A stretch of 64,000 bases of DNA from Mayamaea pseudoterrestris (lineage: Eukaryota): assembly GCA_027923505.1 (NCBI GenBank), contig BROI01000009.1, positions 496,001-560,000 on the forward strand. Reading direction: 5' to 3'. Under the pieces are notes generated by a model, which saw only the letters and a program-made list of their open reading frames with translations, was not told where the DNA came from and did no database searches. Below, piece by piece: positions 5,224 to 39,179 of the stretch. The position numbers and the translations under genes were made by a program. Numbering within the stretch: position 1 is the first letter of the stretch; the number at the start of each line of letters is the position of its first letter.

Positions 5224-6449
5224 GACGAATGCGGATGTCTTACTGGTACAGACCATGAAAGGTCGTGAGTCGTGACTTGGACGAAAGAATGTCACTTGAC
5301 GAAGCAGTGCTGTATGTAGCAGCTCTGTGACGCTGGCAGGGCTGCCAAGGAGCAATGGCTTCGAACGAGTCGCCTGCAACCAGCTCATATATTATGTCGA
5401 TCACTCTGTGTTCTGTTTTACTGGCTGCTAATAGAAAGAGGAGCACCAGTTTGTCAACGCCGTCCAGTGAAATTGCGTGGCAGCCATCGGCCATCATTCA
5501 TGGACTTGTAGACAGACGACGCACCATCATCTGACGTAGTCGACTTCGACCAAACAAGCCAGGCAAATGATTGATTGGCGCGTTGACAAGACGTTGGCGG
5601 TTAAGTAGACAAAGACGGAAGACGTCTCCTTCCTTGATTATTGCGCGACACGCGCACTCAGCTGATGGTCATGTTTCGCGATGGACCACCAGTCCACCAG
5701 TATGGAATCTGTTACGTACATTACGGAAGTAGAGGCACGAACTCACCTTCTTGGACAACTCGCTCGTCGAAGTGATCGTAAAAGAGGGGTGAATGCGTGT
5801 GTCGCAGACTGACGCGCCTTTGGGTGCAAAATATCAAAGCAATCGCTCCCTTTGCAAACCTTGTTCCGCGAAAAATTTTCAACCATGACGTTGACGCGCC
5901 TGAGCGTTCATTGTCAAGACTCTAGATGCAAGTTGAAGGTATTGGCTACCAAATTGTCGAGATACACTCACGCGATGAGGAGAAAAGGGTCGAAGAATGG
6001 CATGAGCCTGCATTCTCAGCACGATTCCGAGCAAGAGGAGCCGCAGCGCGATCTCAGCTTTATGGTGACTACGATAACATATATATCTCAAACAGCCTTT
6101 CATATGTTACCAATCTTATGGAACCTCGGGTCAGATGTCATTGACGCACTAGCTAACTCGCGATGATGTCAAATACTTGTACTTGGCCGACATCTTCATC
6201 TTTGCGATCGATAAACTAGTAGCAATACATCGCATACATATATATTATGATGATATAAAGCACTTTATTACCTCGTCACCTTGGTGGAGTTATTAATTGT
6301 CTACCGGTAGGCTGTTTACTCGTACAGTTAATATCGGCAAAGCTTGCTTGGTTGTCGTCCAGTCTGTAGACACTAAACCGGCCATCGAGGATCAAGCAAA
6401 CGAAAACGTATCCGCGACTTTATCACACTACCGGTAGGTGCAATACAAG

Positions 6450-7214
6450 CTAACCCCTTCCAGGACGGTGTCTTCGAAAGATTGATGGAATCCGGCTCGA
6501 GATGGACCTTGTCGCTTCTGTAGTTGGTGCTAGTCGACGGGCAGTGGCATCACGAATCATTCGCTCGCAGTCTTTACGAGCCTTGCGAGCATCCCGAACG
6601 TTTAAAAACGGTACCTTGACTCCATCCTTTCCTCCAAAGCACAAGCAGTCACTCTCCATGTCGATGACACATTGAAACCGTCTCATTTGATCCAATCCGA
6701 GCACAACCGATGGCAGCTCCGAGTCCAGCACCAAAAAGTATAGTCTAAACTCGACATGCCCAACGAGACAAATCAGATTCTCCACGACTCCCACAATATT
6801 AGCACTTCCAACGCCTCCGCAGGCACCGGAAACACTAGCATTGAGCTTGTCCATCAACCCAAGCTTTCGCAGGACAACAAGACTCATGGCTGACATTGAC
6901 GCACCCGAGTCAACCAGTAGATTCACCTTGCGATCATCAAGTGTGCAGTTGACAAATAACATGTGATCATCTTGCTGTTGAAGGTTGAAGAAGCCATGCT
7001 CGACTTGAAACTCATTGGCAGCAGTCGTGGCGTCTTCTTGGACGGATCTCAAGGCAGCCGACGTTTCTCGTGCCGCAAATTCTTCAGCCGTTTGAAGGTC
7101 AAGGGCAAGCTGCATGTCGCGAGCCATGAGCTCGTCTGCCATAGTGACAGTGGATGAGCTTGTCTTGTTGTTGTCATCATTGACATTCCGGTCGATGTTG
7201 CTGTTGGCGGACAT
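6450..7214 (-). CDS. DDI1-like retropepsin (retroviral-type aspartyl protease domain) protein, 254 aa
   Basis: Catalytic LLVDSGASMSAMS, flap-like GGVGSANIVG and LGLDQMRRFQCVIDM are typical of the DDI1 RVP domain. The N-terminus has a UIM-like segment (DELMARDMQLALDLQTAEE). No UBL or UBA domain is evident. Confidence 0.88.
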   Translation of the reverse strand: MSANSNIDRNVNDDNNKTSSSTVTMADELMARDMQLALDLQTAEEFAARETSAALRSVQEDATTAANEFQVEHGFFNLQQQDDHMLFVNCTLDDRKVNLLVDSGASMSAMSLVVLRKLGLMDKLNASVSGACGGVGSANIVGVVENLICLVGHVEFRLYFLVLDSELPSVVLGLDQMRRFQCVIDMESDCLCFGGKDGVKVPFLNVRDARKARKDCERMIRDATARRLAPTTEATRSISSRIPSIFRRHRPGRG

Positions 7215-7328
7215 GACGGAGGAGGCGATGGCAAACGAACGACGAAAGGAGTGAGTGCAAGCAAGCCAAGGCGTTTCAAATGATGTCTACTGACGCCGCA
7301 AGCAGCTTTGCGTTTCCTATCGTTTGTC
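6975..7328. repeat. Direct repeat, copy B, of 1-354
   Basis: Exact match to 1-354. Confidence 0.97.
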
Positions 7329-7706
7329 GGGCGAATGTTTATAAAGCAGTCAGCAATATGTATATCGCCACGAGGCAGTCTGCGTTGGTGTTTGAAGGAA
7401 AGGTCATCATCACGTTGCCCATGGTCATTTTCCAATCCGATTATTCATCAGCCCCATACGACATCCAAATTCAGTGCCGCTTTAATCATCATTGGATCAA
7501 TGACGTCATCCAATTGCTGTGCGACATAAAGAGAGGTTTGCCTCGTTACCGCGTTACTACGACTTGAATTTGCCGCCGCCGATGCCGATCGTCTCACAGT
7601 TGCTTAGCCGAGTACATTGCCAATTCACTACAAAGGACCTTTAGACAGCTTCATTGTTTGTTTATGATAAGGTTGATTTGAGTCTGAGTTCTTCGGGCTT
7701 GGAGTT

Positions 7707-7780
7707 GGGGACAGTCCATGGGGGAGCAGTCCACTGGGGAACAGTCCATCGGGGAATAGTCCATTGGGTATAGTCCAGTC
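7707..7780. repeat. Degenerate 15-bp tandem repeat, 5 copies (core GGGNRNAGTCCA)
   Basis: AGTCCA at 7713, 7728, 7743, 7758 and 7772. The minus strand reads ...QWTIPRWTVPQWTAPPWTVP. Confidence 0.9.
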
Positions 7781-8916
7781 GCAACGTCACAACTTTTATG
7801 TGTCGATTGCTGGTGCACACTTGTTCGAATGATTCTGGTGGTTGGGTCTGCTTGCTAGGATTAATCCTTTCCAGCTTTCTTAGATCATTAGTCTGAATGG
7901 AGTCTACTTTGGCCTCGGCTGGACGATTCACCTATTCGAGCAAGCACTTATAAATTTGGCGGCTCTGATCATGGATCGAGCGGCACTGGGTGTAACAGTG
8001 AATGTTGTCAGGTGTCACACAGCTGGGAGGCGTCCGGACGGTTTTGCGTGCAGTTACATAATAGCTACGAAAGTGGCTCCCAGACCTGGCGCCTCCATCT
8101 CAAGGCTTTGATACTAGCGCTTATGATTAACAATCGTGAGTCCCTTTATGGCACATCTCGCTGAACCCACGTTTTCCCTGGCGAAGATAGACCACCTTGA
8201 CGTGGTGCTGGGGCTTTCCCACTAAGAGTCTATCATAAAACAATTCTTGGACATGGAACTTTTGCTGATTATCGACATCGACCGACCTGCTGCCTGGCAT
8301 GGCAACCACTAAATGCCCGTGGCAGAGTGGCGCAAGGCAGTGGAGTGGGACTCAAGTTGGTGGCACTCGAGCTTGTGGTGGCGAGTGGCAAGACAGTAGG
8401 CACACTATGAAAGTACTTTACTGAATTGTGACTATTACAGTTTTCGTTTACATTTGTAACTTTTTGTGCTTACAAAATTGCTTTCGCTTCCTTGGTCAAT
8501 CGTGCTGCCCGTGAGTTGTACGAGCAGTGCAAAGCGATGCGCTTGATGATACAACTGCTCCTGCAAATGGTTGCAATGCAATCAATGTACTCGAGCAGTT
8601 TTCGTTGCCTTGCTGCCATTGGAGATGAGGATGAAACCACTTTCTAGTGCAGCGCGCTGCAAATCACGTAGCAATAGATCCCAGCTTTCTTGGTGTAGCG
8701 AAGTTGTATCATTTGCAACTTGCTTTAATCGATGGACTGCTCTACCATCTACCTACCTAGTCAAAAGCTTGCTACAAGTAAAAAGCAACTTGTAAGCTAA
8801 ATTAATTACTCTTGGTGCTTTTTCTCGGTATAAGAAACATATATATCATTATCTCCATCTCGTCCTTCATTCGTCGCTCGACACGACATACTCTTGTGCT
8901 CTCGCTTTCCATGAAC

Positions 8917-9055
8917 TTAAAAGTTCAAGCAGTGCTTGGGACCGACATTCTTGTCTTCCATGCTCTGCATGCATTCTTCGAATACATCCTCCTCTTCATT
9001 GTCTAGCTTTTGCATGCATTCTTCGAATACATCCTCCTCTTCATCGTCCAGCTTC
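8917..9055 (-). pseudogene. Displaced original C-terminal coding segment of the 12412-9952 gene
   Basis: Reads (Q)KLDDEEEDVFEECMQKLDNEEEDVFEECMQSMEDKNVGPKHCLNF*. It joins in frame to ...QKLDATTQKLDRYLIEG when one TGTCCCT copy and 9063-10153 are removed, and it continues the QKLD repeat. Confidence 0.82.
8966..9055. repeat. 45-bp tandem duplication (15-aa unit QKLDxEEEDVFEECM on the minus strand)
   Basis: TGCATGCATTCTTCGAATACATCCTCCTCTTCATYGTCYAGCTTY occurs twice. Two of the three differences are synonymous on the minus strand (CAA/CAG, CTA/CTG). Confidence 0.93.
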
Positions 9056-10395
9056 TGTCCCTTTTTCAAGCGCCGTCACTTTCTGCTATCAATACAGCCA
9101 AGATTGCTTTCAATGCAGCCATGGAGGAACTCCACCATCTCGACAAGTCATTCATGAGCAAGATCAATGATATTCTAGCTGGAGCAAAAGGCAGTGATGT
9201 CGCCTCGATTGGCAAGCATTTATACGCCTGTTATCCTTCCTTTGCCAAGCTGGACATGCAGAAACTGATTCCACTGGCACTCAAGCCAATTACGCAGGAA
9301 AAGATCAATTGGTTGGCACGAAACGATCTTCCTTTCAAGGATTGTATTGATAATTTGATCAAGGAGCATGTTGCGGAGTTGGCGGCGCAAGCCGCTCGAC
9401 TCAACGCCAATGACACAACTTTGCAGCAGCATGATGGGCGCTTGACCAGTCTTGAAGGTTGCCATGACGCTACTGAGAACCGCATCGATATGCACGATGG
9501 ACACTTGAAGCAGCTCAACAAATCCAACAAGATTCAGGCGAACGTGAATGAGCTCATTCATTTTCGTATCGAACAAAACGAAGACACTTTAAAGGCTCAT
9601 GACGTACGCCTGGGAGCCACGGAAGCCAACGTCCAGGAGCTTCGCAAAGACTTGGGGGCGCATGGATTTCGTCAATATGGCACGGAACTCAAAGTCCAGC
9701 AGATGGGCGGAGACTTGGCAGCGCATGGAGCACGTCATGATGCCACGGAAGCACGTCAGGATGTCTTGGAAGGCAAGGTCCAGCAGATGGGTGGAGACTT
9801 GGTGGCGCATGGGGCACGTCATGATGCCACGGAAGCACGTCAGGATGTCTTGGAAGGCAAGGTCCAGCAGATGGGCGGAGACTTGGAGGCGCATGGAGCA
9901 CGTCAGGGTGTCTTGGAAGGCAAGGTCCAGCAGATGGGCGGAGACTTGGTGTCACATGGAGCACGTCAGGAAGTCTTGGAAGGCACGGTCCAGCACATGA
10001 TCCAGCAGGACAAGAATGCGCGCTACAACTACCATCTTACGCTCCACGACACGCAAATCACGGCTCAGCAGGCAGTCAATGCCAACCAGCAGGAAGTCAA
10101 CGCCGCCACTGCGCAGAAGCTTGATGCCACTACGCAGAAGCTTGATCGATACTTGTCCCTCGATCAAGTATCGATCAAGCTTCTGCGTAGTGGCATCAAG
10201 CTTCTGCGCAGTGGCGGCGTTGACTTCCTGCTGGTTGGCGTTGACTGCCTGCTGAGCCGTGATTTGCGTGTCATGGAGCGTAAGATGGTAGTCGTAGCGC
10301 GCATTCTTGTCCTGCTGGATCATCGTGTTCGCCATGTCCTGCTGAATCATGTGCTGGACCGTGCCTTCCAAGACTTCCTGACGTGCTCCATGTGA
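9010..10395 (+). CDS. Mirror ORF created by the inverted duplication (near-copy of the C-terminal half of the minus-strand gene); translation doubtful
   Basis: 461-codon ORF that starts at TTG; the first in-frame ATG is at 9121. It reads through the loop into antisense sequence. Confidence 0.25.
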   Translation: MHAFFEYILLFIVQLLSLFQAPSLSAINTAKIAFNAAMEELHHLDKSFMSKINDILAGAKGSDVASIGKHLYACYPSFAKLDMQKLIPLALKPITQEKINWLARNDLPFKDCIDNLIKEHVAELAAQAARLNANDTTLQQHDGRLTSLEGCHDATENRIDMHDGHLKQLNKSNKIQANVNELIHFRIEQNEDTLKAHDVRLGATEANVQELRKDLGAHGFRQYGTELKVQQMGGDLAAHGARHDATEARQDVLEGKVQQMGGDLVAHGARHDATEARQDVLEGKVQQMGGDLEAHGARQGVLEGKVQQMGGDLVSHGARQEVLEGTVQHMIQQDKNARYNYHLTLHDTQITAQQAVNANQQEVNAATAQKLDATTQKLDRYLSLDQVSIKLLRSGIKLLRSGGVDFLLVGVDCLLSRDLRVMERKMVVVARILVLLDHRVRHVLLNHVLDRAFQDFLTCSM

Positions 10396-11277
10396 CGCCA
10401 AGTCTCCGCCCATCTGCTGGACCTTGCCTTCCAAGACACCCTGACGTGCTCCATGCGCCTCCAAGTCTCCGCCCATCTGCTGGACCTTGCCTTCCAAGAC
10501 ATCCTGACGTGCTTCCGTGGCATCATGACGTGCTCCATGCGCCACCAAGTCTCCGCCCATCTGCTGGACCTTGCCTTCCAAGACATCCTGACGTGCTTCC
10601 GTGGCATCATGACGTGCTCCATGCGCCGCCAAGTCTCCGCCCATCTGCTGGACTTTGAGTTCCGTGCCATATTGACGAAATCCATGCGCCCCCAAGTCTT
10701 TGCGAAGCTCCTGGACGTTGGCTTCCGTGGCTCCCAGGCGTACGTCATGAGCCTTTAAAGTGTCTTTGTTTTGTTCGATACGAAAATGAATGAGCTCATT
10801 CACGTTCGCCTGAATCTTGTTGGATTTGTTGAGCTGCTTCAAGTGTCCATCGTGCATATCGATGCGGTTCTCAGTAGCGTCATGGCGACCTTCAAGACTG
10901 GTCAAGCGCCCATCATGCTGCTGCAAAGTCGCGTCATTGGCGTTGGGTCGAGCGGCTTGCGCCGCCAACTCCGCAACATGCTCCTTGATCAAATTATCCA
11001 TACAATCCTTGAAAGGAAGATCGTTTCGTGCCAACCAATTGATCTTTTCCTGCGTAATTGGCTCGAGTGCCAGTGGAATCAGTTTCTGCAGGTCCAGCTT
11101 GGCAAAGGAAGGATAACAGGCGTATAAATGCTTGCCAATCGAGGCGACATCACTGCCTTTTGCTCCAGCTAGAATATCATTGATCTTGCTCATGAATGAC
11201 TTGTCGAGATGGTGGAGTTCCTCCATGGCTGCATTGAAAGCAATCTTGGCTGTATTGATAGCAGAAAGTGACGGCGC
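9070..11277. repeat. Long inverted repeat (fold-back): left arm 9070-10155, loop 10156-10164, right arm 10165-11277
   Basis: The arms are reverse complements, e.g. CTTGATCGATACTTG-tccctcgat-CAAGTATCGATCAAG at the centre. I counted about 15 substitutions plus one 27-bp indel (10324-10350, present only in the right arm). Confidence 0.98.
9694..9996. repeat. Coding heptad tandem repeats with 84, 84, 63 and 63-bp units (mirrored at ~10350-10655)
   Basis: GTCCAGCA anchor at 9694, 9778, 9862, 9925 and 9988. Unit VQQMGGDLxAHGAR(HDATEAR)QDVLEGK; all unit lengths are multiples of 21 bp. Confidence 0.95.
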
Positions 11278-12412
11278 ATGCGACTTTTCAACCTTCTCCA
11301 GCTTGAGCTGCGCCTGGCGCAAGCTCTTGGTCTTCAAAGTGATTTCCTTGGTGTGTACAACAAAGGCGGATCCTTGATAAAGGTCTAACATGCTTGGACT
11401 TGTTCGCTGTTTGCAGAATGCTTCGACGTGATTCTTGCTGTACCCCTGTAGGCCTGTCAAGCTCTTGGAAAGACGATCAACAGCGTTAAAACGATCCCAT
11501 TCTGCAATTGCAAGCATTCCTCCGAATGAAGCTGGAATGATTGGCTCACGAAGATATTTGAGGCCGCACGGCGAATCGACGGAGATGCCATCGGCGTAGT
11601 CCATGAGTGCTAGCTTGACCTCTTTCTCTCCTACCTTGATGCAATCGTTGGGACAAGCCTTGAGCGACTCCATGATCTTGAAAACGTCTTCAAGTGTGAA
11701 AGCGAAAACATTCTTGGGGAGCTTCATATTCTTGCCGTCGGCAGCCGCCTTGTTGATGTCGTCAACCGAAACGCCCATTTGGAGGCAGACGACTCGGGCC
11801 ATCGCTTCGAAAGCCATGATCTTGTGTTTCATGGCATCCAAGTCGCTCATATTGAAAGTCAAGGCGTCATCCTCGCCTATAATGGTCGAAAAGGAGTAGG
11901 CAAAAAGGTGTGAGTAGAGCAAGAGTCGAGAGGCATGGCAGGAGCGCTAGTTGGCAGCAGCAGCAGCAGCAGGCACGCCACGCTGCACGTTTGGTCTCAA
12001 CTGTAGACTTACCATGATCCGCCGCCGCCGCCGCATCGACTCCTCCCGATGACGTGAAAGCTCCAATCAAGTCGTTGCTTGCTCCATTGCTTGCTCCATC
12101 GCTGCTGCGCAGCGAGTCGCCGCCGTTGACAAGCTGGAGGGAGTCGCTCAACCCATCCCCATTCGTTCCATCACGCACGAGCACAAGGACGTCACCATCA
12201 AAGCCGTCACCCCAATCATCGTCGTTCATTCCAGAACGGCTGGCCGCAAGACTTGTAGCGCGCGCATTGCGCGCCGATCCGTTCGACTCGGCCGCAGGCG
12301 CATGGCTGCCGTCCTGCACGTTGCCGGTGCCGCTACCGACAAGACTGCTCGACACCGCTGTGCCATCCTGGCGCGGAGACCCCGCAGGGACATCCACTTT
12401 CTCTTTATTCAT
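9952..12412 (-). CDS. Orphan protein (low-complexity N-terminus, helical domain, long heptad coiled coil); 2 exons (12412-12013, 11876-9952); 3' end disrupted by its own inverted copy
   Basis: A GTAAGT...TACTCAC...ATAG intron (12012-11877) joins the 272-aa and 656-aa ORFs in frame (DH-G-EDDAL). The start codon is uncertain (upstream ATGs exist). Current product ~774 aa; reconstructed pre-insertion product ~753 aa. Confidence 0.72.
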
Positions 12413-12639
12413 TCGACTCGCCGCAGAAGGACTTCCAAACAAAGGTGTAGTAGTGCAATGGCTGTTCATGTCGAGAGTTGATCGCATGCTCCCAGCTAGA
12501 GCCGCTACGACATTAAGTTGCGTGTTAACTACCACGACCGGTACCGGTAGGTTTCGTTGACGAGAAAACTTCCCTGTAGAATAATGTCTGACGACAGTTA
12601 CAGTGGTACACACTTTATACATTAAACCATAGCAAGTTA

Positions 12640-13210
12640 CTGTAGCATGTACAATGAGCATACAATGGTCACTCATGTAAAGCAAAGCACATTCAAATTA
12701 CACCGGTAAGTCTGCCGCCTCATTCCCTAGCATGACCTCCCGGTAAGTATCACCGCTGGCGCCGTCGGACCCCAAACAAAATTACAAATGCATTGCGGTT
12801 ACAAGGAGTCATGGCAGGATGCTGTAGCACATATACTACATACAATGACCGTTTTCTGGGCCAAATCCAAGGTCTGCCACGCCGTTCCACGGCATGGCCT
12901 CAATATAAGCGCCCGCACTGACGGACTCCAACCAGATGGTTAACCATTGCATTGCGGATACCATGAGCCATGGCAGGGTTGTTGGAGCACACAGTCGCCG
13001 TTCTCTGGTGAAGTTAGGCGCCTTAAATCGAAGGTCTGCTGCGCCATTCCCTAGCATGGCCACAATATCAGCGCCGGCACTGCTCCAACCATGCATTGCG
13101 AATACCATGAGACTTGGCAGGAAGTTGCTGGGGCATACAATGGCCGTTCTCTGGAAAGTTAAGGCGCATCAAAATCCAAGGTCTGCCGCGCCGTTCCTTT
13201 GCATGGTTTC
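12640..13210. repeat. Degenerate ~150-160-bp tandem repeat, ~3.5 copies, upstream of the hairpin gene
   Basis: Anchor GTCTGC...TTCC..(A/G/T)GCATG at 12710, 12872, 13034 and 13181. Shared blocks TGCATTGCG, TGGCAGG, CATACAATG and CCGTTYTCTGG. Confidence 0.85.
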
Positions 13211-14559
13211 ATGACCTACTTATCATTTGCCAGCAAAGGCAGCACTCGATGTCATCAGAATGGCGGCGGAAGTGACAATCGGAGCGGTCCAAAAAGGAGC
13301 GTTGCCGCTTACACAAGGGGGAAGAGGAAGAGGTGCAGCAAATGCCACTGTTGATGCGGGATGCCCTGTTCCTGCTCCAGCATTGACCAAAGAAAATGCG
13401 AGCGCAATGAACCGAGCAAGAGTAGTAAACACCATGTCGGTTTTTTGTATCTGCAAGACTGTGAGGTAATGCAACAAAAGTATGGGTCAGTTGACCGTGC
13501 GGGCGAAGTGCAATACCTTCGGATTGTGAACCATTGGAACCTTGCGGAACGTTCATGCCCCTTTAAAGCGCGTGACAGCGTGTCATTCGACCTTCCTGTT
13601 GGAAATTCATGGCATCAGTCAAACGACAAGGTTTTGACACCATCTGCTCTGTAGTTGTCGCGTCACATCGCGATGTAGTAGTTGTCTCGTAAATGAGCAA
13701 CGAGCGCTGATGATGATGGTGCGAGGCAACCGGCGCTTCAATCGCGAAAATGTCGATGCTAGGGCTCAAGAGTTAAAAGAAATCTTACTTATGTAGCAGA
13801 CATTGACGCGCGCCACTTACATATTTACATGCAGTAAGAACACGTCTGGATCGACATTTGTATTCGATCCTCGGTGCGCTCAGTTACAATGCACGACAAG
13901 GCGTCGACTCGGTAGCTGAAATACCGACGTACGATTTATCGCGGCACTTGATTGTTTACGTTCTTTATCGGATTTGCGGTCGGGACTATCTTATGAACAG
14001 GCTGGATAATGGCATAGTACGGTATCTGGATGCTCCCGAACAGCAAGAACGTGCCGAATGCACGACAATTAAGCTAATGAGTTTTGTTCGTCGCGGCTTT
14101 CTTGACTAGGAAAAATTGACGATACGCTGAGCACACGCAATCTTGTTGGTAGCAGCATCGTCGATCGAAATGCTACAGATGACGTTCGCCGTAATCGCAA
14201 GTTTGCGCCTGTGTGCGATTATGGCGAAAGACTCGACAATGTTGCGGACCAGGGAGATGGTAGCCTGCAACAAGGCGGATCAGCGAGCCAGATTGTTAAC
14301 ATGAACAACGCGCGTATGGATGTGCACGGTAAATTGATCGACCTGTTATACATACGAAAGTAGATAATGACAATAATGATTATATATAGTATGCATAGTG
14401 GCTGTCGTCAATTTGCTGACAATGGCACATTGTGCAAGGAAAAGGAGCAGCACTGCTTGGTCTTGATTAGTTGAATGGTACGTGAAATTAAGTCAGTCGC
14501 AATGTTTATGTATATATTGGTTGTCAGACAGGCAATGGCACATTGCGCAAAGAAGAGGC

Positions 14560-32837: not shown

Positions 32838-33337
32838 GATTCTACTTTAGACTCTGTGGACTTGTAGTGAGTGATCAATAGGCTTGTTTCAATTGAAGAC
32901 CATGAATGAATAATTCAACGACGGATGTTGACTGTGAATCAAAGGTGTCGTCGTCGTCGGATCGATCCAATGCCATGGTGCGTGCAGCGTTGGTTCGGCG
33001 TGCCAGTCGGAACGTTGAGCCATTGATTGATATTCAATTCTGAATATACAGCTATTTTAGATACTATTTGAATTACTATTGCCTCAAGCGTGAGACGAGT
33101 CAGCATGAGTCACGAGTTTCTTATAGTTAGGGATAGTTTCGCAAGATCGTCACCCACCGCTCGTCGAGGATGACCATGACGATGGCACGCGAGAAACGCC
33201 AGGATCAAGACGACGAGCCCGTTAACAAATCATCTACAGCGTGAGTCCATAAAGAAAACGAGCTTTTAATAAAAATTAAATAATTTCGTCACGGCAAAAA
33301 CAAACAAACGAACAAACGAACAAACAACAACGTCATC

Positions 33338-36300
33338 ATGTCGAACCTTTCGCGACCCAGTCTTCCCCGGCCGCCTTCAACGACGCCTGCCATTAAGCGC
33401 AGTATCAGTCCGCTACTGTCGTCGTCAAGCTTGATGAGTACGCCAGTGCATGCAACGAATACATCTACTACCACTTCAAGCAATTCGACTGCAGCAGCAG
33501 CGACTCGAACGATTGGAAGATTTCGATTGCCTCCGTCGAGAGCCGCAACTGCAGTTGGAATCACAACAGACACTGAATCTGCGACTGCATCGAATCTGGA
33601 AGCAACAATTGCTGCTGCTACCACTGCTGTTACTACAACGGGGACTGATGGTGAAACGACGCTGGAAATTACAGCACCAAGTGACAAGTTTAGAAAGGAT
33701 CATTGCTCACCATTCGCAGCAATGTCGATGGAGGATCAGTCGAACCTTGTTTTGGCGACGAAGAATGATGATTGTAACGAGACGACAATTAGCAATCAAC
33801 CGTTTAGAAAGCAGACCAGCGTCGAGCCGAATGATGCCACAGAACCTGACGACCATGATGCACAGGTGCAAGATTCTGCATGGAACGAGCTTGTTGATTC
33901 TGCGAGTGGAAACATATACTATTATAATGCCATGACGGGGGAAACGTCTTGGGAACGTCCAGTCGTGATAGAGGAGAAGCTGATTGCAAAGTTTTCCGAC
34001 GGTGAGGATCTCGTTGCCAGCAAAGCGATTGAGCAACAGCAAGCCGACTCGCTTCCTGCCGAAATTCATATTCAACCGGAAATGACAGCTCTCATGTCGA
34101 ATGACGATCGGCAGTCTGTTGTCAATGTGTCCACTGCTCCACTAAAATACATCAATGGTGCATCGGATTGGAGTGAAGCTGTTTACGAAGCTACTGGGCA
34201 AACCTACTACTACAACACGGTCACCCTGGAAACGTCTTGGGAGCGACCATCGTTACATAATAAGGCCATTGAAAAGGCAGCAGCAATGACTGGTTCTGTA
34301 GATCCGGATGTGTTTGTAGACTTAGACACACCGCCTGAGTTGACACTTCCCGAGCGAGAAGGAGAGTTGACTACGACAAATGCTTACGAAAATTATGAGC
34401 TGTCAAAGAGAGCCGACGAATATCAGCTGCCAAGGGGCTGGATGGTCGAGCTGGACGAAGCGACGGGCCGAACATATTACGTTCATCAAATGACAATGGA
34501 AACAACCTGGGATCGACCCTTGACCGTGCAATGCGTCCCAGAGGATGCGCTCATAAATGAAACGGCCAATGATAAACGGCCAGAGGAAGTCATTCAACAT
34601 CCGGCTCGTGGCACTATGTTGACGATGGAAGCAATGTGCGACACAGCACCACTTTCATTGTCAGCGACGGCAGACGAAGTCTCAATGTACGATAATGGCG
34701 TACCCGAGTCAGCTGGACACGAGCGCCCGTTAGCGGCATTCAAACACAACGCTGTTGAAGCAAGTAGTGTTTTAGACGAATGGACTGAATTATTGCATGG
34801 TTCGAATGGGGAATTGCACGTTTGCAATCAAGCAACTGGGGAAACAGTATGGGACCGTCGCGAGTCGGTGAGCAATGATACACAACAGTTGCTCGTGAAT
34901 GCAGACACTGGACCGGAAAATGTTCCCGAGACATTTGTAGACTCCGCAACGTATGAAACCGAAATTGAAAAATTGAATTTCGATGACGGTGAAGCCACCG
35001 GACCGTCCGAGGCAGAAGAAACGTGTGATTGGATCGAAGAATTGGAGGAGGCAAGTGGTCGGACGTATTATTATAACACAAAGACTGGCGAAACGACGTG
35101 GACACGAATAGGCGCCGACGTTTCGGCCTCCGAGGCTCCCATGGAGTATGTCGAAGATGCTGATATACGAAACGGAGCAGAATTCAACGCAGGGAATTCG
35201 AACGAAGGGTTGTTGAGCGAGGAATCGCAATCAGAAATGGTATCGTTGAAGCAGACACTTGTAGAAATTGCAAGTAACGACATGCCTTCGTTGGAGTGGG
35301 TGGCGCGTGTTGATGAATCGACAGGCAAACCATATTACTTGAATATTATGGCGCGAGCAACAGCTTGGGAACTACCCGAAATAACTGACGTTCCCGCTAC
35401 TTTTCCGGAGGGCGACAAAGGGGGTCTACCGGTAGATGCGATTGCGGAGCCGATTGCGTTAACTGTAAAGAACTCTACATATGGACAAAACCTTGACGAA
35501 TCAGGCGTCGACGAGCAATTAGGACAAGTTGGTGGCGGACTTTCAGACTGGGTCGAGGGTGTAGACGAATTAACAGGTCAGCCGTATATAGTTGACAAAA
35601 AAAGATCAGAGCATACGCTTGGATGCCATGATGCCTCCGAGAGAGGCGAAGGGATCGATGCGGGTTTGGTCAACCACGACGAAAGTGCTGTTGCAAGAAG
35701 CGATTATCCTTTGCCACAATCAATGTGGAGCGAAATGATCGAACCGTCGACTGGGTATAGCTTCTACGTCAACTCTGTAACTGGTGAAACTAAATGGGAA
35801 AGACCAGTTGAATTTGATTCGCGAAGAATGGCTGGCCCTTTGAAGTCATCCGCTGTTCAAAACACTCTGTTGTGTGCTTCACAGGCCGCGGCCCCAAACG
35901 ACCTAGCCAAAAGTATTGCGGACGATTCTTCCTTGGCTACTGATAATAATATTGACCTGGTGTCGAAACAAAACGAGTGCAACACCAAGGTGTCTGACGA
36001 TCAGAAAGACACACTCACCGAGAGTGAGCGAAGCATGGTGGAGTTAGAAAGAAACACGAAAGAGTCCGTACGACCATTGACTTTACCGGATGGCTGGGAA
36101 GAGTTAATTGATCATAACACAGGGAGCGTGTACTATTTTTGCGCGGAAAGAAGCATTACTTCGTGGGAGCGACCGATCAGTTATGCTGACGTCGATGAAT
36201 CAGATGCAATGGTCGATCAACCTGAAGTTACGGGATGCCAGGCCTGCATTCCATTTTCATGGGAGGAAGTGGCTGATGGCCAAGGATGCATTTATTATTT

Positions 36301-39179
36301 TAATGCCGAGACAAACGAAACGTCTTGGATGCTTCCTACAGACTCGATTGTAACAAATGAGGCCACTAGAGTAGGGATTGAAGATAACGATGAGGATCAT
36401 CCGCATGCCTCTGAGCCGCCGGTAGCGTTTCAGGACGCTAACGACGAATACAATATGGTGAATAATGAACGCGCTGACGAGTGGTCCGAGGCGGTCGATC
36501 CGATATCAGGAAAGATGTACTTTTTTAACGCCGTCACTGGTGAGACCTCCTGGGACCCACCTTGCCCAGATACTGGGTCACCTAATGGCAATGTTGCTGT
36601 TACCATAGAGTCTGAACAGACAGAGTCGCCTGTTATGAGCGTTGGAACGGCCGGCGATGCATCGCTAATCCAGCGACACAATCTGCCGAGGAGTTGGTCA
36701 GAACTCCGCGACGGAGAAGGCCGAGTTTATTACTTCAACGAAGAAACAAGCGAAACAACTTGGGAGTTCCCAAAGCTAGCGGACTGTGCAGCCGACAAGG
36801 TCCTGCCCAATGGTGCAAAGCCGATGGTTGATGAAAAGAGCCAAGATGGCTCTGCTCGCAATCATTCTCAAACACCAGTGAATTCAACTTCTCGCAGATT
36901 TGGGTCGATTGTTGCGAAATTTGGATTTGGTGGTCGACTACTTGTCTCAGCTCGCGGATCGCTCATGATTTACAAGACTTCAGAGGTCGTTCCAAGCGAC
37001 ATGATTCTTAAAATTGAATCTAGCAAACGCGCCAATAATGTCATAGGTTGTCTTGTTTCAGCTGATGCTTCGGATGTGGCTGCATACGTCAATTCTCAGT
37101 CTGAAACGGATCATGATATTTTATGGCGTCTCGTATCCATCGCAACAGAAACGAATGGCACATTAAGAGTCGACGACAAATCATTCAACCTCGAGCCGTT
37201 GCTTTTACACTATTTAAGAGCGAGCCTTGACCATGACGGACGCACTAACGTTTCTGCTCATGAGGTGCTGAACAAGATCAAGTTCGAAAGTGGAAATTTG
37301 CACAAGGTCCTAGAGCTTCTCATTAGCGGACATGCAGAAAAGGCTGCCGAGGAGGCATTTTTGGAAGGAAACCATGCAATTTCGCTCATAATTGCACACG
37401 GATGCGGCACACAAGTTTTTCAAAAAGCACTTGAAAAGTTTGGGACGAACGGTCTCCTGGAAGGATGTACATTACACATTTACACCATGATGCTTTCTCA
37501 GCAGATTAGTGACCCAGCAAAAGTCAATTGGGGCGACAATGTCGAGCTGTTATGCACGACATGGAAGCAAACCCTTGCTGTAATTCTCAGTAACCGAGTT
37601 AAAGGCTGGGATGTATTCGCGCTGTCACTTGCCGACCAATTGCACGCGGTGGGCAATGTTGCCGCAGCGCATTTTTGTTACTTGATATCAGGTGTGTCGC
37701 TCGCCTCACCAGCTCGCAAAGGTGGCAAAATGTCACTGATAGGCTGTGGATTAACGCATCCAATGGATTTGGCACTCGCGACGAAATCTTCAATTATGGC
37801 TTTTGCTCGTACTGAAGCTTACGAATGGGCGAGGCGACAAGGTAACTCCACTTACGTTTGCTCTTCTCTTCAACCTTTGAAGCTGGTTTACGCCGTGCTT
37901 TTGGCAGATTATGGGTTCGAAGAAGCTGCTTTAAGCTATGCCAGAAGCATCGTTGATTGTATTGGGGCTGCCGGCAATGATTTTGATGGCGCGACCAATA
38001 CGGTGCCGCTATGGTTATCTTGTCTTGGCGTCGACCGCAATCATACACTAGTTTCTCTCGCCGAGTTTATGCAGCGCCTCGAACGACGAGTCGCCCCTGC
38101 CAATGAGTCAATTACATCAGACAACAAGAAGGACGCAACGGGTTTTCCAGATCACACGCTTTACGCTGAACGAAGTGACAAGTGTCTTCCACCAGCGCCG
38201 TTACTGATGAAACCCAATGAGCGAGCAGAGCGAGCACCAGCGACGAGACAACAACGGCCGTCACTGTTGCAGACCCGAGATTTGCAGTCGATATCCCCAA
38301 CGCACAAAAGAGATGTGCCGGCAACACCTGAGTCTCATCAGTCGGTTGGGCAGATGCCACCGACCATGTTGCCTCTTAGGGAGACTATTAGCTCATTGAC
38401 GCGGGCGCAATCATCAAGTAAGACAGACACTTTGGAAGCAATCCTACCAAAGATGAAAGTGGCCGGTTCGGCGCCGGAGCTCCAATATCAGCAGACGCGC
38501 TCCAGTCAATTAGGCGATAGTATTGAGAAGAAACAAGCGTTGAATCCACCGTCAGCACCTCCAACACATCCTACAACCCCGACAGGCCAAATGGTGGCTC
38601 AACCTGCACAACAAGAAATAATCAAACCCATCAAAAGTGCACCATTGTCCGCACCGGCCCATTTAGAAGGAAGGAGTAAGTTTTGATGATATTCCGTCAA
38701 CTCGCTTGTTTACTTTCGTCGCACTCGGGACTATACTCATACGCTCTCAATTGTTTGTAAAAGGACGTAGCTATTTTAACTTTGGCATCAAGTCGAAGGT
38801 CACAAAATGGTTGAATCCTGATGCGCATGAGGCCGATTTAGGGGAGAAGATGGAAGCATACTACGACAACGAACGAAAGGTTTGGATATTCCCGGGCGAG
38901 AACCCCGACGACATTGCCAAGCCGATTGGTCCGCCTCCAACACCACAAATGTCCGTGCCTGATGATTTGAAACCAACTCCTCCATTTGCTGCACCGTCCA
39001 ACGATCCATTGGCAGCCATGATGGCTCCTCCACCTCGCGCTCTAGGCAATAAAGCTGCAAAATCACGGAACGCTTCTACCGGTATTACTCCTGGCCGTAT
39101 GCCTGGTATGATCATCCCAGGATCGGCAACTGGGGCACCGATGTTTGCTGTTTTCCAGCCTACTGCAGCTGCAACGTGA
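33338..39179 (+). CDS. SEC16: Sec16-like COPII scaffold with an N-terminal array of ~12 WW domains; 2 exons (33338-38675, 38764-39179), ~1917 aa
   Basis: Repeated W-x(7-9)-G-x2-YY-x-N-x4-ETSW-x2-P. Sec16 central-domain-like motifs FGFGGRL, WKQTLAVILSNR, AAAHFCYL, RTEAYEW and LKLVYAVLLADYG. C-terminal LGEKMEAYYDNERKVWIFPG. In-frame GTAAGT...AAAG intron. Confidence 0.8.

Follow-up and report, generated by a model that had tools for sequence, protein, structure and literature searches.

The 64,000-nt stretch of the genome of the freshwater diatom Mayamaea pseudoterrestris analysed here (assembly GCA_027923505.1, contig BROI01000009.1, positions 496,001 to 560,000 of the forward strand; hereafter the window, numbered from its first letter) carries on its minus strand the gene MPSEU_000525900, which encodes a hypothetical protein of 734 amino acids (P0001) and which contains an inverted copy of a large part of its own coding sequence. 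The 562-residue translation of 10165-11850 matched one database protein at 100%, and this was MPSEU_000525900. The parts of the gene from its 5' end, and two features that overlap them, are as follows.

12013 to 12469, minus strand: exon 1 of MPSEU_000525900, encoding a low-complexity N-terminus (tblastn of P0001 residues 1-154 on 12469-12008; donor G/GTAAGT)
11877 to 12012, minus strand: intron of 136 nt with GT..AG borders, across which P0001 reads ...DHG/EDDA (sequence)
11281 to 11876, minus strand: unique 5' part of exon 2, encoding a globular domain common with the paralogue P0002 (phmmer, best stretch query 2-202; BLASTP)
10165 to 11280, minus strand: right arm, which is the sense copy and keeps the reading frame of the gene, with 63/84-nt coiled-coil repeats and an extra 27 nt (repeat search, alignment)
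10156 to 10164, minus strand: 9-nt loop, across which the frame reads LIEGQ and which contains AGGGACA (sequence)
9067 to 10155, minus strand: left arm, the inverted copy, antisense within the gene transcript (repeat search, frame, alignment)
8917 to 9066, minus strand: native C-terminal coding tail, LKKGQKLDDEEEDVFEECM twice and ...CLNF, with the stop at 8917-8919 (reading frame; 64.5% identity to P0002 520-550)
10042 to 10133, minus strand: 92-nt intron in the left arm, predicted only, which reproduces the deposited ending ...VSIKLLP-stop (P0001 C-terminus)
7301 to 13686, no strand: CpG-depleted patch holding the locus and flanking repeats (sliding-window CpG observed/expected ratio, o/e)

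An inverted copy at 9070-10155 of the immediately preceding coding sequence (10165-11277), separated from it by a 9-nt loop, was the core of the original prediction, and both the repeat search and a global alignment confirmed it. In the alignment the two arms are 98.6% complementary, with 15 substitutions in 1086 aligned bases and a single indel of 27 nt, the extra sequence (10324-10350) lying in the right arm and giving the duplication MIQQD-MANT-MIQQD. The repeat search resolved the same structure into two collinear inverted pieces, 9067-10012 with 10335-11280 (946 nt, 99%) and 9997-10155 with 10165-10323 (159 nt, 98%), the inner ends of the arms being 9 nt apart. All six inverted pairs of at least 120 nt in the 64-kb window were located at this locus and none elsewhere, arguing that the arrangement did not arise by chance. 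Each arm contains tandem coiled-coil repeats of 63 and 84 nt, and the heptamer AGGGACA, with TTGA three bases upstream, is present at the loop and again at the left junction. A copy that abuts its template across a 9-nt spacer, and breakpoints that share a short word (AGGGACA), are the marks of a microhomology fold-back. When the minus strand of 8917-11400 was folded as RNA, the minimum free energy structure (-2397 kcal/mol) contained 1079 pairs between the arms, in agreement with the near-complete fold-back that had been claimed for the transcript. By this computation, an RNA that starts at the native promoter and extends to the native 3' end would form about 1.08 kb of near-perfect double-stranded RNA (dsRNA). 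The locus has the architecture of hairpin RNA (hpRNA) loci, in which the arms of a long, nearly perfect inverted repeat lie on one strand around a short loop. We consider it very probable that the fold-back duplication is real as assembled.

The intron and the original 3' end had been said to remain, and they do: the GT..AG intron (12012-11877) is intact and the frame of the tail survives from 9066 to 8917. The gene start had been put at 12412; the annotated start is 12469. The minus-strand frame runs from exon 2 into the right arm and across the loop (...RYLIEGQ/VSIKLL...) to a stop at 9952-9954. The deposited MPSEU_000525900 model ends ...RYLIEGQVSIKLLP, and 10133-10042 is the only donor/acceptor pair that gives P and then a stop; the published model therefore ends inside the inverted duplicate, and should be used with that warning in mind. 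The MPSEU_000525900 protein is thus truncated and has lost its native C-terminal end, while the 150 nt of the tail are still in frame, reading LKKGQKLDDEEEDVFEECM QKLDNEEEDVFEECM QSMEDKNVGPKHCLNF before the stop. Within this tail a 45-nt tandem duplication (8966-9055) gives QKLD(D/N)EEEDVFEECM twice, a motif that the paralogue P0002 has once.

The gene family appears, from sequence comparison, to be almost an orphan, as had been proposed. A phmmer search of 1.84 billion representative proteins gave eight matches at E<=0.001, of which only P0001 and P0002 were below 1e-10, the other six being coiled-coil matches. A word-indexed homology search at near length returned only MPSEU_000525900 itself among 8000 scored candidates, the corresponding search at shorter lengths returned no match among 4541 candidates, and a protein atlas search with MPSEU_000525900 gave no usable match. 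Tropomyosin (PF00261) was rejected as an identity for the protein, the Pfam score of 19.7 bits against a gathering cut-off of 38.6 amounting to coiled-coil likeness only. P0002 (MPSEU_000528700, 550 amino acids) is intact and is encoded on the same contig beyond the window. In BLASTP it is about 30% identical to P0001 and collinear with it from the N-terminal region to the end, and tblastn of P0002 on the window found the hairpin locus as its sole match. The C-terminus of P0002 reads ...NQQEVNAANAQEFELIWSTLKKAQKLDDEEVDVFEDCIQSEEGENVDPKRRLKF and ends ...IWSTLKKAQKLDDEEVDVFEDC...KF, while the arm in the window ends ...NQQEVNAATAQKLDATTQKLD/RYLIEGQ and the tail matches P0002 residues 520-550 at 64.5%. 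Because P0002 is collinear and has a matching end, the tail at 8917-9066 is the native C-terminus, severed by the insertion.

According to the portion of PMC9724779 that describes it, the assembly was made from LSK109 Nanopore reads (52x, read N50 8.6 kb) with Raven and NextDenovo, merged by MAC 2.0, polished with Illumina reads and purged of haplotigs, the k-mer heterozygosity being 2.97%; neither locus tag occurs in two text supplements of that paper. Short-read contigs from four of the eight sequencing runs listed, two DNA-like (X1, X2) and two transcriptome-like (X4, X5), were aligned, at a likeness threshold of 95%, to 6000-10225. This reference takes in the 3' flank and the tail, all of the left arm, the loop, and the adjoining 61 nt of the right arm. 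These runs may share source material with the assembly, but neither Nanopore chemistry nor the assemblers had a part in them. The evidence consists of 25 of the 142 contig pieces and 12 of the 26 loose ends, and shows presence, not absence. The left junction, where the tail meets the inverted arm, is bridged by one X4 contig (record 20, 189 nt, 9015-9203) and one X5 contig (record 24, 183 nt, 9012-9194), each with 0 mismatches and 0 gaps and with at least 52 nt on either side, so that two data sets contain exact 31-mers in which the old tail continues into the outer end of the inverted arm. The arm contigs were deeper than the flanks in both DNA-like runs, 62.4 against 38.3-38.6 in X1 (1.6x) and 406.6 against 140-152 in X2 (2.8x). 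Of the two signs of a fold-back artefact, absence of a junction from short reads was not seen at the left junction, and arms at the depth of the unique flanks were not seen in either DNA-like run. At 9070 one loose end is a right-arm contig that continues into the flank upstream of that arm, as expected if both arms exist. At six of the 15 sites at which the arms differ (9256, 9283, 9348, 9460, 9580 and 10080) contigs of one run or another carry the letter of the left arm and that of the right arm; these differences are therefore in the reads and not polishing noise. The inverted duplication is not a pure assembly artefact. The earlier claim that the structure is real is upheld at least at the left junction, which contigs of two runs bridge; no contig among those covered spans the loop. 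The loop word and the tail word were each found 0 times in metagenome scans. Position 6596 reads C in all four runs against G in the assembly, which probably retains a base error there or shows a minor allele.

The contigs also point to another copy of the gene. Two X1 contigs follow the arm (at least 95%) to 10124 (...CAGAAGCTTGA) and then encode EHIWSTLKKA, so that this copy reads ...QKLEHIWSTLKKA, with the join QKL/EHIWSTLKKA. P0002 has ELIWSTLKKA after a different preceding sequence, and the third copy is therefore distinct from P0002. Since the EHIWSTLKKA continuation resembles the uninterrupted C-terminus of P0002, the strain holds an intact-type copy, and the genome that carries the inverted repeat also carries a homologous gene as a potential target, as hpRNA loci do. 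The original prediction had looked for targets among intact copies and paralogues: the former are represented by this copy in the same DNA reads, but the annotated paralogue, at about 30% identity, is too diverged to be a general target. The intact junction that had been expected, ...RYLIEGQKLDD, is not among the contigs covered, nor is a joint skipping from about 9059 to about 10160. No third protein of the family is annotated, as judged by the word-indexed searches at near and shorter lengths and by phmmer, and the loose-end sequences at 10124 and 9483 do not occur in the window at up to 3 mismatches. The missing annotation would fit a third copy that is an allele lost in haplotig purging, without proving it.

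Other contig features belong to P0002 or to the tail. The loose end before 9483 encodes DGQVATLNSS, as in the P0002 gene, and a joint that goes back from 10120 to 10081 carries 23 inserted letters encoding AKYEQFI, again as in the P0002 gene, at a depth of 42.1, about flank level; a few P0002 patches of up to about 40 nt align to the locus at the 95% threshold. Over the tail region 8825-8982, two contigs differ at 7 sites. The reference-type contig has depths of 48.7 (X1) and 163.7 (X2) and the alternative 24.5 and 96.3, the flanks being at 38.6 and 152. The alternative contig may be the tail of the intact-type copy. Two simple genotypes, a heterozygous hairpin with one intact allele and a homozygous hairpin with one extra copy, were tried, and neither fitted all of the depth figures. 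Copying of the left arm from the other allele was rejected as a simple model, as right-type majority letters were found at 9460, 9580 and 10080 in both DNA runs.

The differences between the arms are concentrated at CpG sites. Of the 15, 13 are transitions and 11, judged from their sequence contexts, are changes of CpG to TpG or CpA; the CpG is kept in the right arm at nine of these and in the left arm at two (asymmetry p=0.065). Among nine flank variants (6238-8331) used as a control, two are CpG transitions (compared with 11 of 15, Fisher's exact p=0.033), and among the seven differences between the tail contigs five are; in four of those it is the assembled version, linked to the hairpin, that has lost the CpG. 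In the left arm CpG o/e is 0.79, a value undercut by 1.9% of 630 sliding segments, and in the right arm it is 0.87, compared with 1.05 in the unique 5' part of the gene and a mean of 1.11 in the window. Sliding segments of 1086 nt with CpG o/e below 0.85 number 26 of 630, and all of them start within 7301-12601; the locus thus lies in the only CpG-depleted patch of the window. This decay may be the mutational trace of CG methylation.

Two repeated elements lie in the same neighbourhood. The segment 7551-8255, which adjoins the hairpin gene, has 3.5-7x the flank depth in both DNA-like runs, 15-nt tandem repeats at 7707-7766 and a CpG o/e of 0.70-0.80; it is likely to represent either a dispersed repeat or part of a transposon. 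At 12784-13229, just upstream of exon 1, there are about three copies of a tandem repeat of about 150 nt (families D3, D4 and D6).

Of 30 bins, 15 are covered by contigs of X4 and 16 by contigs of X5. Their depth is 7-17x on the neighbouring Ddi1-like protease gene (6305-7385) and zero on 7410-8114, where the DNA-like runs are 3.5-7x deeper than elsewhere, and they have no cover on 8538-8960. In a thin DNA library the high-copy repeat should be the first sequence to appear, and we therefore take X4 and X5, from their coverage, to be transcriptomes. Left-type letters were found in X5 at 9283, 9348 and 9460 and in X4 at 9580, and right-type letters in X4 at 9460 and in X5 at 9580. If X4 and X5 are indeed RNA, then the junction between the tail and the left arm is present in RNA. 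Transcription into the left arm is probable. The original prediction called for a check of whether transcription crosses the loop into the left arm; the X4 and X5 contigs do hold the inverted arm together with the old tail, but continuity through the loop is not among the contigs covered. With respect to both arms being in a single transcript, the contigs, which are strandless, bridge the tail and the left arm.

Diatoms have RNA interference (RNAi) genes and respond to hairpin transgenes. The best explanation that we can offer for the whole of these observations, a fold-back insertion followed by dsRNA formation and RNAi feedback, is advanced tentatively, as something just short of probable. 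A nascent strand would have snapped back near ...CTTG(9 nt)CAAG..., run backwards along 1.1 kb of its own template and then switched back to the original one at TTGAAAAAGGGACAG. This would have left AGGGACA at each junction and placed the insertion just before the conserved acidic C-terminal tail. The diatom RNAi machinery would then dice the hairpin RNA to small interfering RNAs (siRNAs), which might feed back in cis as CG methylation on the locus and act in trans on the intact-type copy in the same strain; the P0002 patches of up to about 40 nt might also be hit. Production of siRNAs is nearly an even prospect. A selected role in trans-silencing is improbable, and a selected suppressor/target system is speculation. 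The divergence of 1.4% and the indel between the arms imply either that the palindrome is not brand new or that CpG decay has been fast. We regard the locus as a credible, though unproven, natural hairpin-RNA locus.

Inverted-repeat silencers in plants (rice Lgc1, the soybean CHS I locus, Arabidopsis PAI1-PAI4) arose by rearrangement and act dominantly on homologues through siRNA and methylation. In those cases two copies lie tail-to-tail or head-to-head and the effect has been shown genetically, whereas the diatom locus is an intragenic fold-back with a 9-nt loop. Variants of the fork stalling and template switching or microhomology-mediated break-induced replication type (FoSTeS/MMBIR) include fold-back inversions and inverted duplications generated by microhomology-mediated template switching. 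The diatom locus resembles them in that the copy abuts its template across a very short spacer, AGGGACA is found at both junctions and the original sequence resumes; it differs in that the mechanism is deduced from the junction sequence only, the pre-insertion allele not having been recovered.

Among the Drosophila hpRNA loci that produce endogenous siRNAs, the accessible parts of PMC10317233 and PMC10292708 describe D. simulans suppressors of de novo drive genes. Like these, the diatom locus is a long inverted duplication of coding sequence with a short loop, is young and lineage-specific, and has an intact homologue as a potential target. Unlike them, it is in a diatom, its copy lies inside the parent gene and uses the promoter and 3' end of that gene, and it is known here by its structure, where the class is also defined by Dicer-dependent small RNAs of discrete size from the arms and by de-repression of the target once the hairpin or RNAi is removed. 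In Phaeodactylum tricornutum, De Riso et al. (2009, PMC2724275) described inverted-repeat transgenes that silence their target and cause CG-only de novo methylation, which spreads in both directions along the transcribed region. That species, too, is a pennate diatom, and the footprint of CpG transitions in our arms and tail matches CG-only methylation; however, those were engineered constructs directed at a reporter, with methylation measured, whereas the repeat here is natural and the methylation is read from substitutions. Inverted-repeat small-RNA loci in Phytophthora (PMC3804510, in which a full-text search counted 'inverted repeat' 13 times) provide endogenous siRNAs in a stramenopile, as a diatom is, but of a different lineage. 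A small-RNA survey of P. tricornutum found, according to its available portion, no canonical Dicer-substrate hairpins resembling pre-miRNAs (PMC4247016). Our literature search revealed no natural gene-derived hairpin locus in diatoms in listings and abstracts, and no paper joining Mayamaea and Argonaute. The locus may work like the Drosophila hpRNA loci and the plant inverted-repeat silencers, in a manner matching the effects of the P. tricornutum hairpin transgenes; if validated, it would extend such silencing to a new lineage.

Several observations weigh against the fold-back and RNAi explanation. No contig crosses the loop among the pieces and loose ends covered, the reference sequence having ended at 10225. 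The tail depths sum to 1.7-1.9x the flank, and the ratio of arm to flank is 1.6x in X1 but 2.8x in X2. The CpG-depleted patch also spans the high-copy repeat at 7551-8255, so methylation may be repeat-driven, and the tandem repeats at 12784-13229 in the same patch could be the primary methylation target. The CpG statistics are small (15 and 9 sites), with the left/right asymmetry at p=0.065. None of the eight runs is recorded as RNA and none is listed as small RNA, a transcript behind strandless contigs could be antisense or start within the locus, and the depth of X4 and X5 on the locus is just 2-3.3.

The main rival explanation is that the locus is an inert broken allele, a real loss-of-function variant transcribed at a low level, whose RNA is degraded or escapes dicing and whose CpG decay is repeat-driven or due to chance. 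The truncated reading frame with its lost conserved tail, the low RNA-like depth, the reach of the CpG-depleted patch to the high-copy repeat and the tandem repeats, and an annotated paralogue that is only about 30% identical are all in line with it, and we regard it as a serious possibility, though clearly less than probable. It does not readily accommodate the facts that another pennate diatom responds to inverted-repeat RNAs with silencing and CG methylation, that arms with about 1.4% divergence and an indel indicate a palindrome that persisted rather than being quickly lost, and that a possible target exists in the intact-type copy, whose likeness near the 3' end is 95% or more. A partial assembly error, in which the inverted copy does lie beside the tail but the 9-nt loop is wrong and hides a spacer, or two neighbouring copies run together by the Nanopore assemblers, at the merging step or through failed polishing in a repeat, seems rather unlikely. 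The making of the assembly (52x LSK109 Nanopore reads, two merged assemblers, haplotig purging and 2.97% heterozygosity, as given in the available text of PMC9724779) would permit such an error, and the loop junction missing from the contigs covered, the tail depth totals and the departure of the intact-type continuation from the arm 32 nt before the loop could each be signs of it. However, contigs of two short-read runs match the left junction exactly, the arms exceed the flanks in depth in both DNA runs, and 29 nt at the centre of the palindrome are nowhere in the intact-type continuation and so must derive from reads. Typical fold-back artefacts, moreover, have identical arms and do not resume the original sequence at the break, whereas here there are 15 differences, six of them confirmed by short reads.

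It is most improbable that the plus-strand open reading frame (ORF) at 9121-10395 (424 amino acids, MEELHH...) is a new gene born from the opposite strand. The frame is open, the contigs are strandless and X5 has a transcribed piece upstream of the frame, at 8201-8432; but the final 80 codons of the frame read on through the right arm in antisense, there is no evident promoter or start context, and 9 of the 15 differences are non-synonymous, so that no constraint is visible.

As a structure the locus is odd but verified, and the signs that RNA directs silencing there are suggestive yet indirect; one cultured strain holds the hairpin, an intact-type homologue and a possible methylation footprint together. 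If small RNAs are found, endogenous RNAi and RNA-directed CG methylation could be approached in diatoms through a natural locus; otherwise this is an ordinary broken allele. The full conjunction, that this is the first natural hairpin-RNA silencer in a diatom, kept to 1.4% divergence, methylating itself and repressing an intact copy of a Mayamaea-specific, fast-evolving coiled-coil family, is in our view improbable; if true, it would constitute a suppressor/target pair like those of Drosophila genetic conflicts.

Some further features of the window were recorded. The ORF at 6450-7286 on the minus strand encodes a Ddi1-type retropepsin-like aspartyl protease (PF09668, E 8.4e-18) and is well covered by X4 and X5; heterozygous sites lie in or near it at 6838, 7222, 7247 and 7302. 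An isolated 232-nt contig at 8201-8432 has a depth of 18.5 in X5, in otherwise uncovered intergenic DNA, and has no match in Rfam, a search that gave 0 matches overall. Finally, an open frame of 1800 amino acids at 33284-38686 on the plus strand contains 10 WW domains (E 2.4e-92) and a Sec16 Sec23-binding domain.

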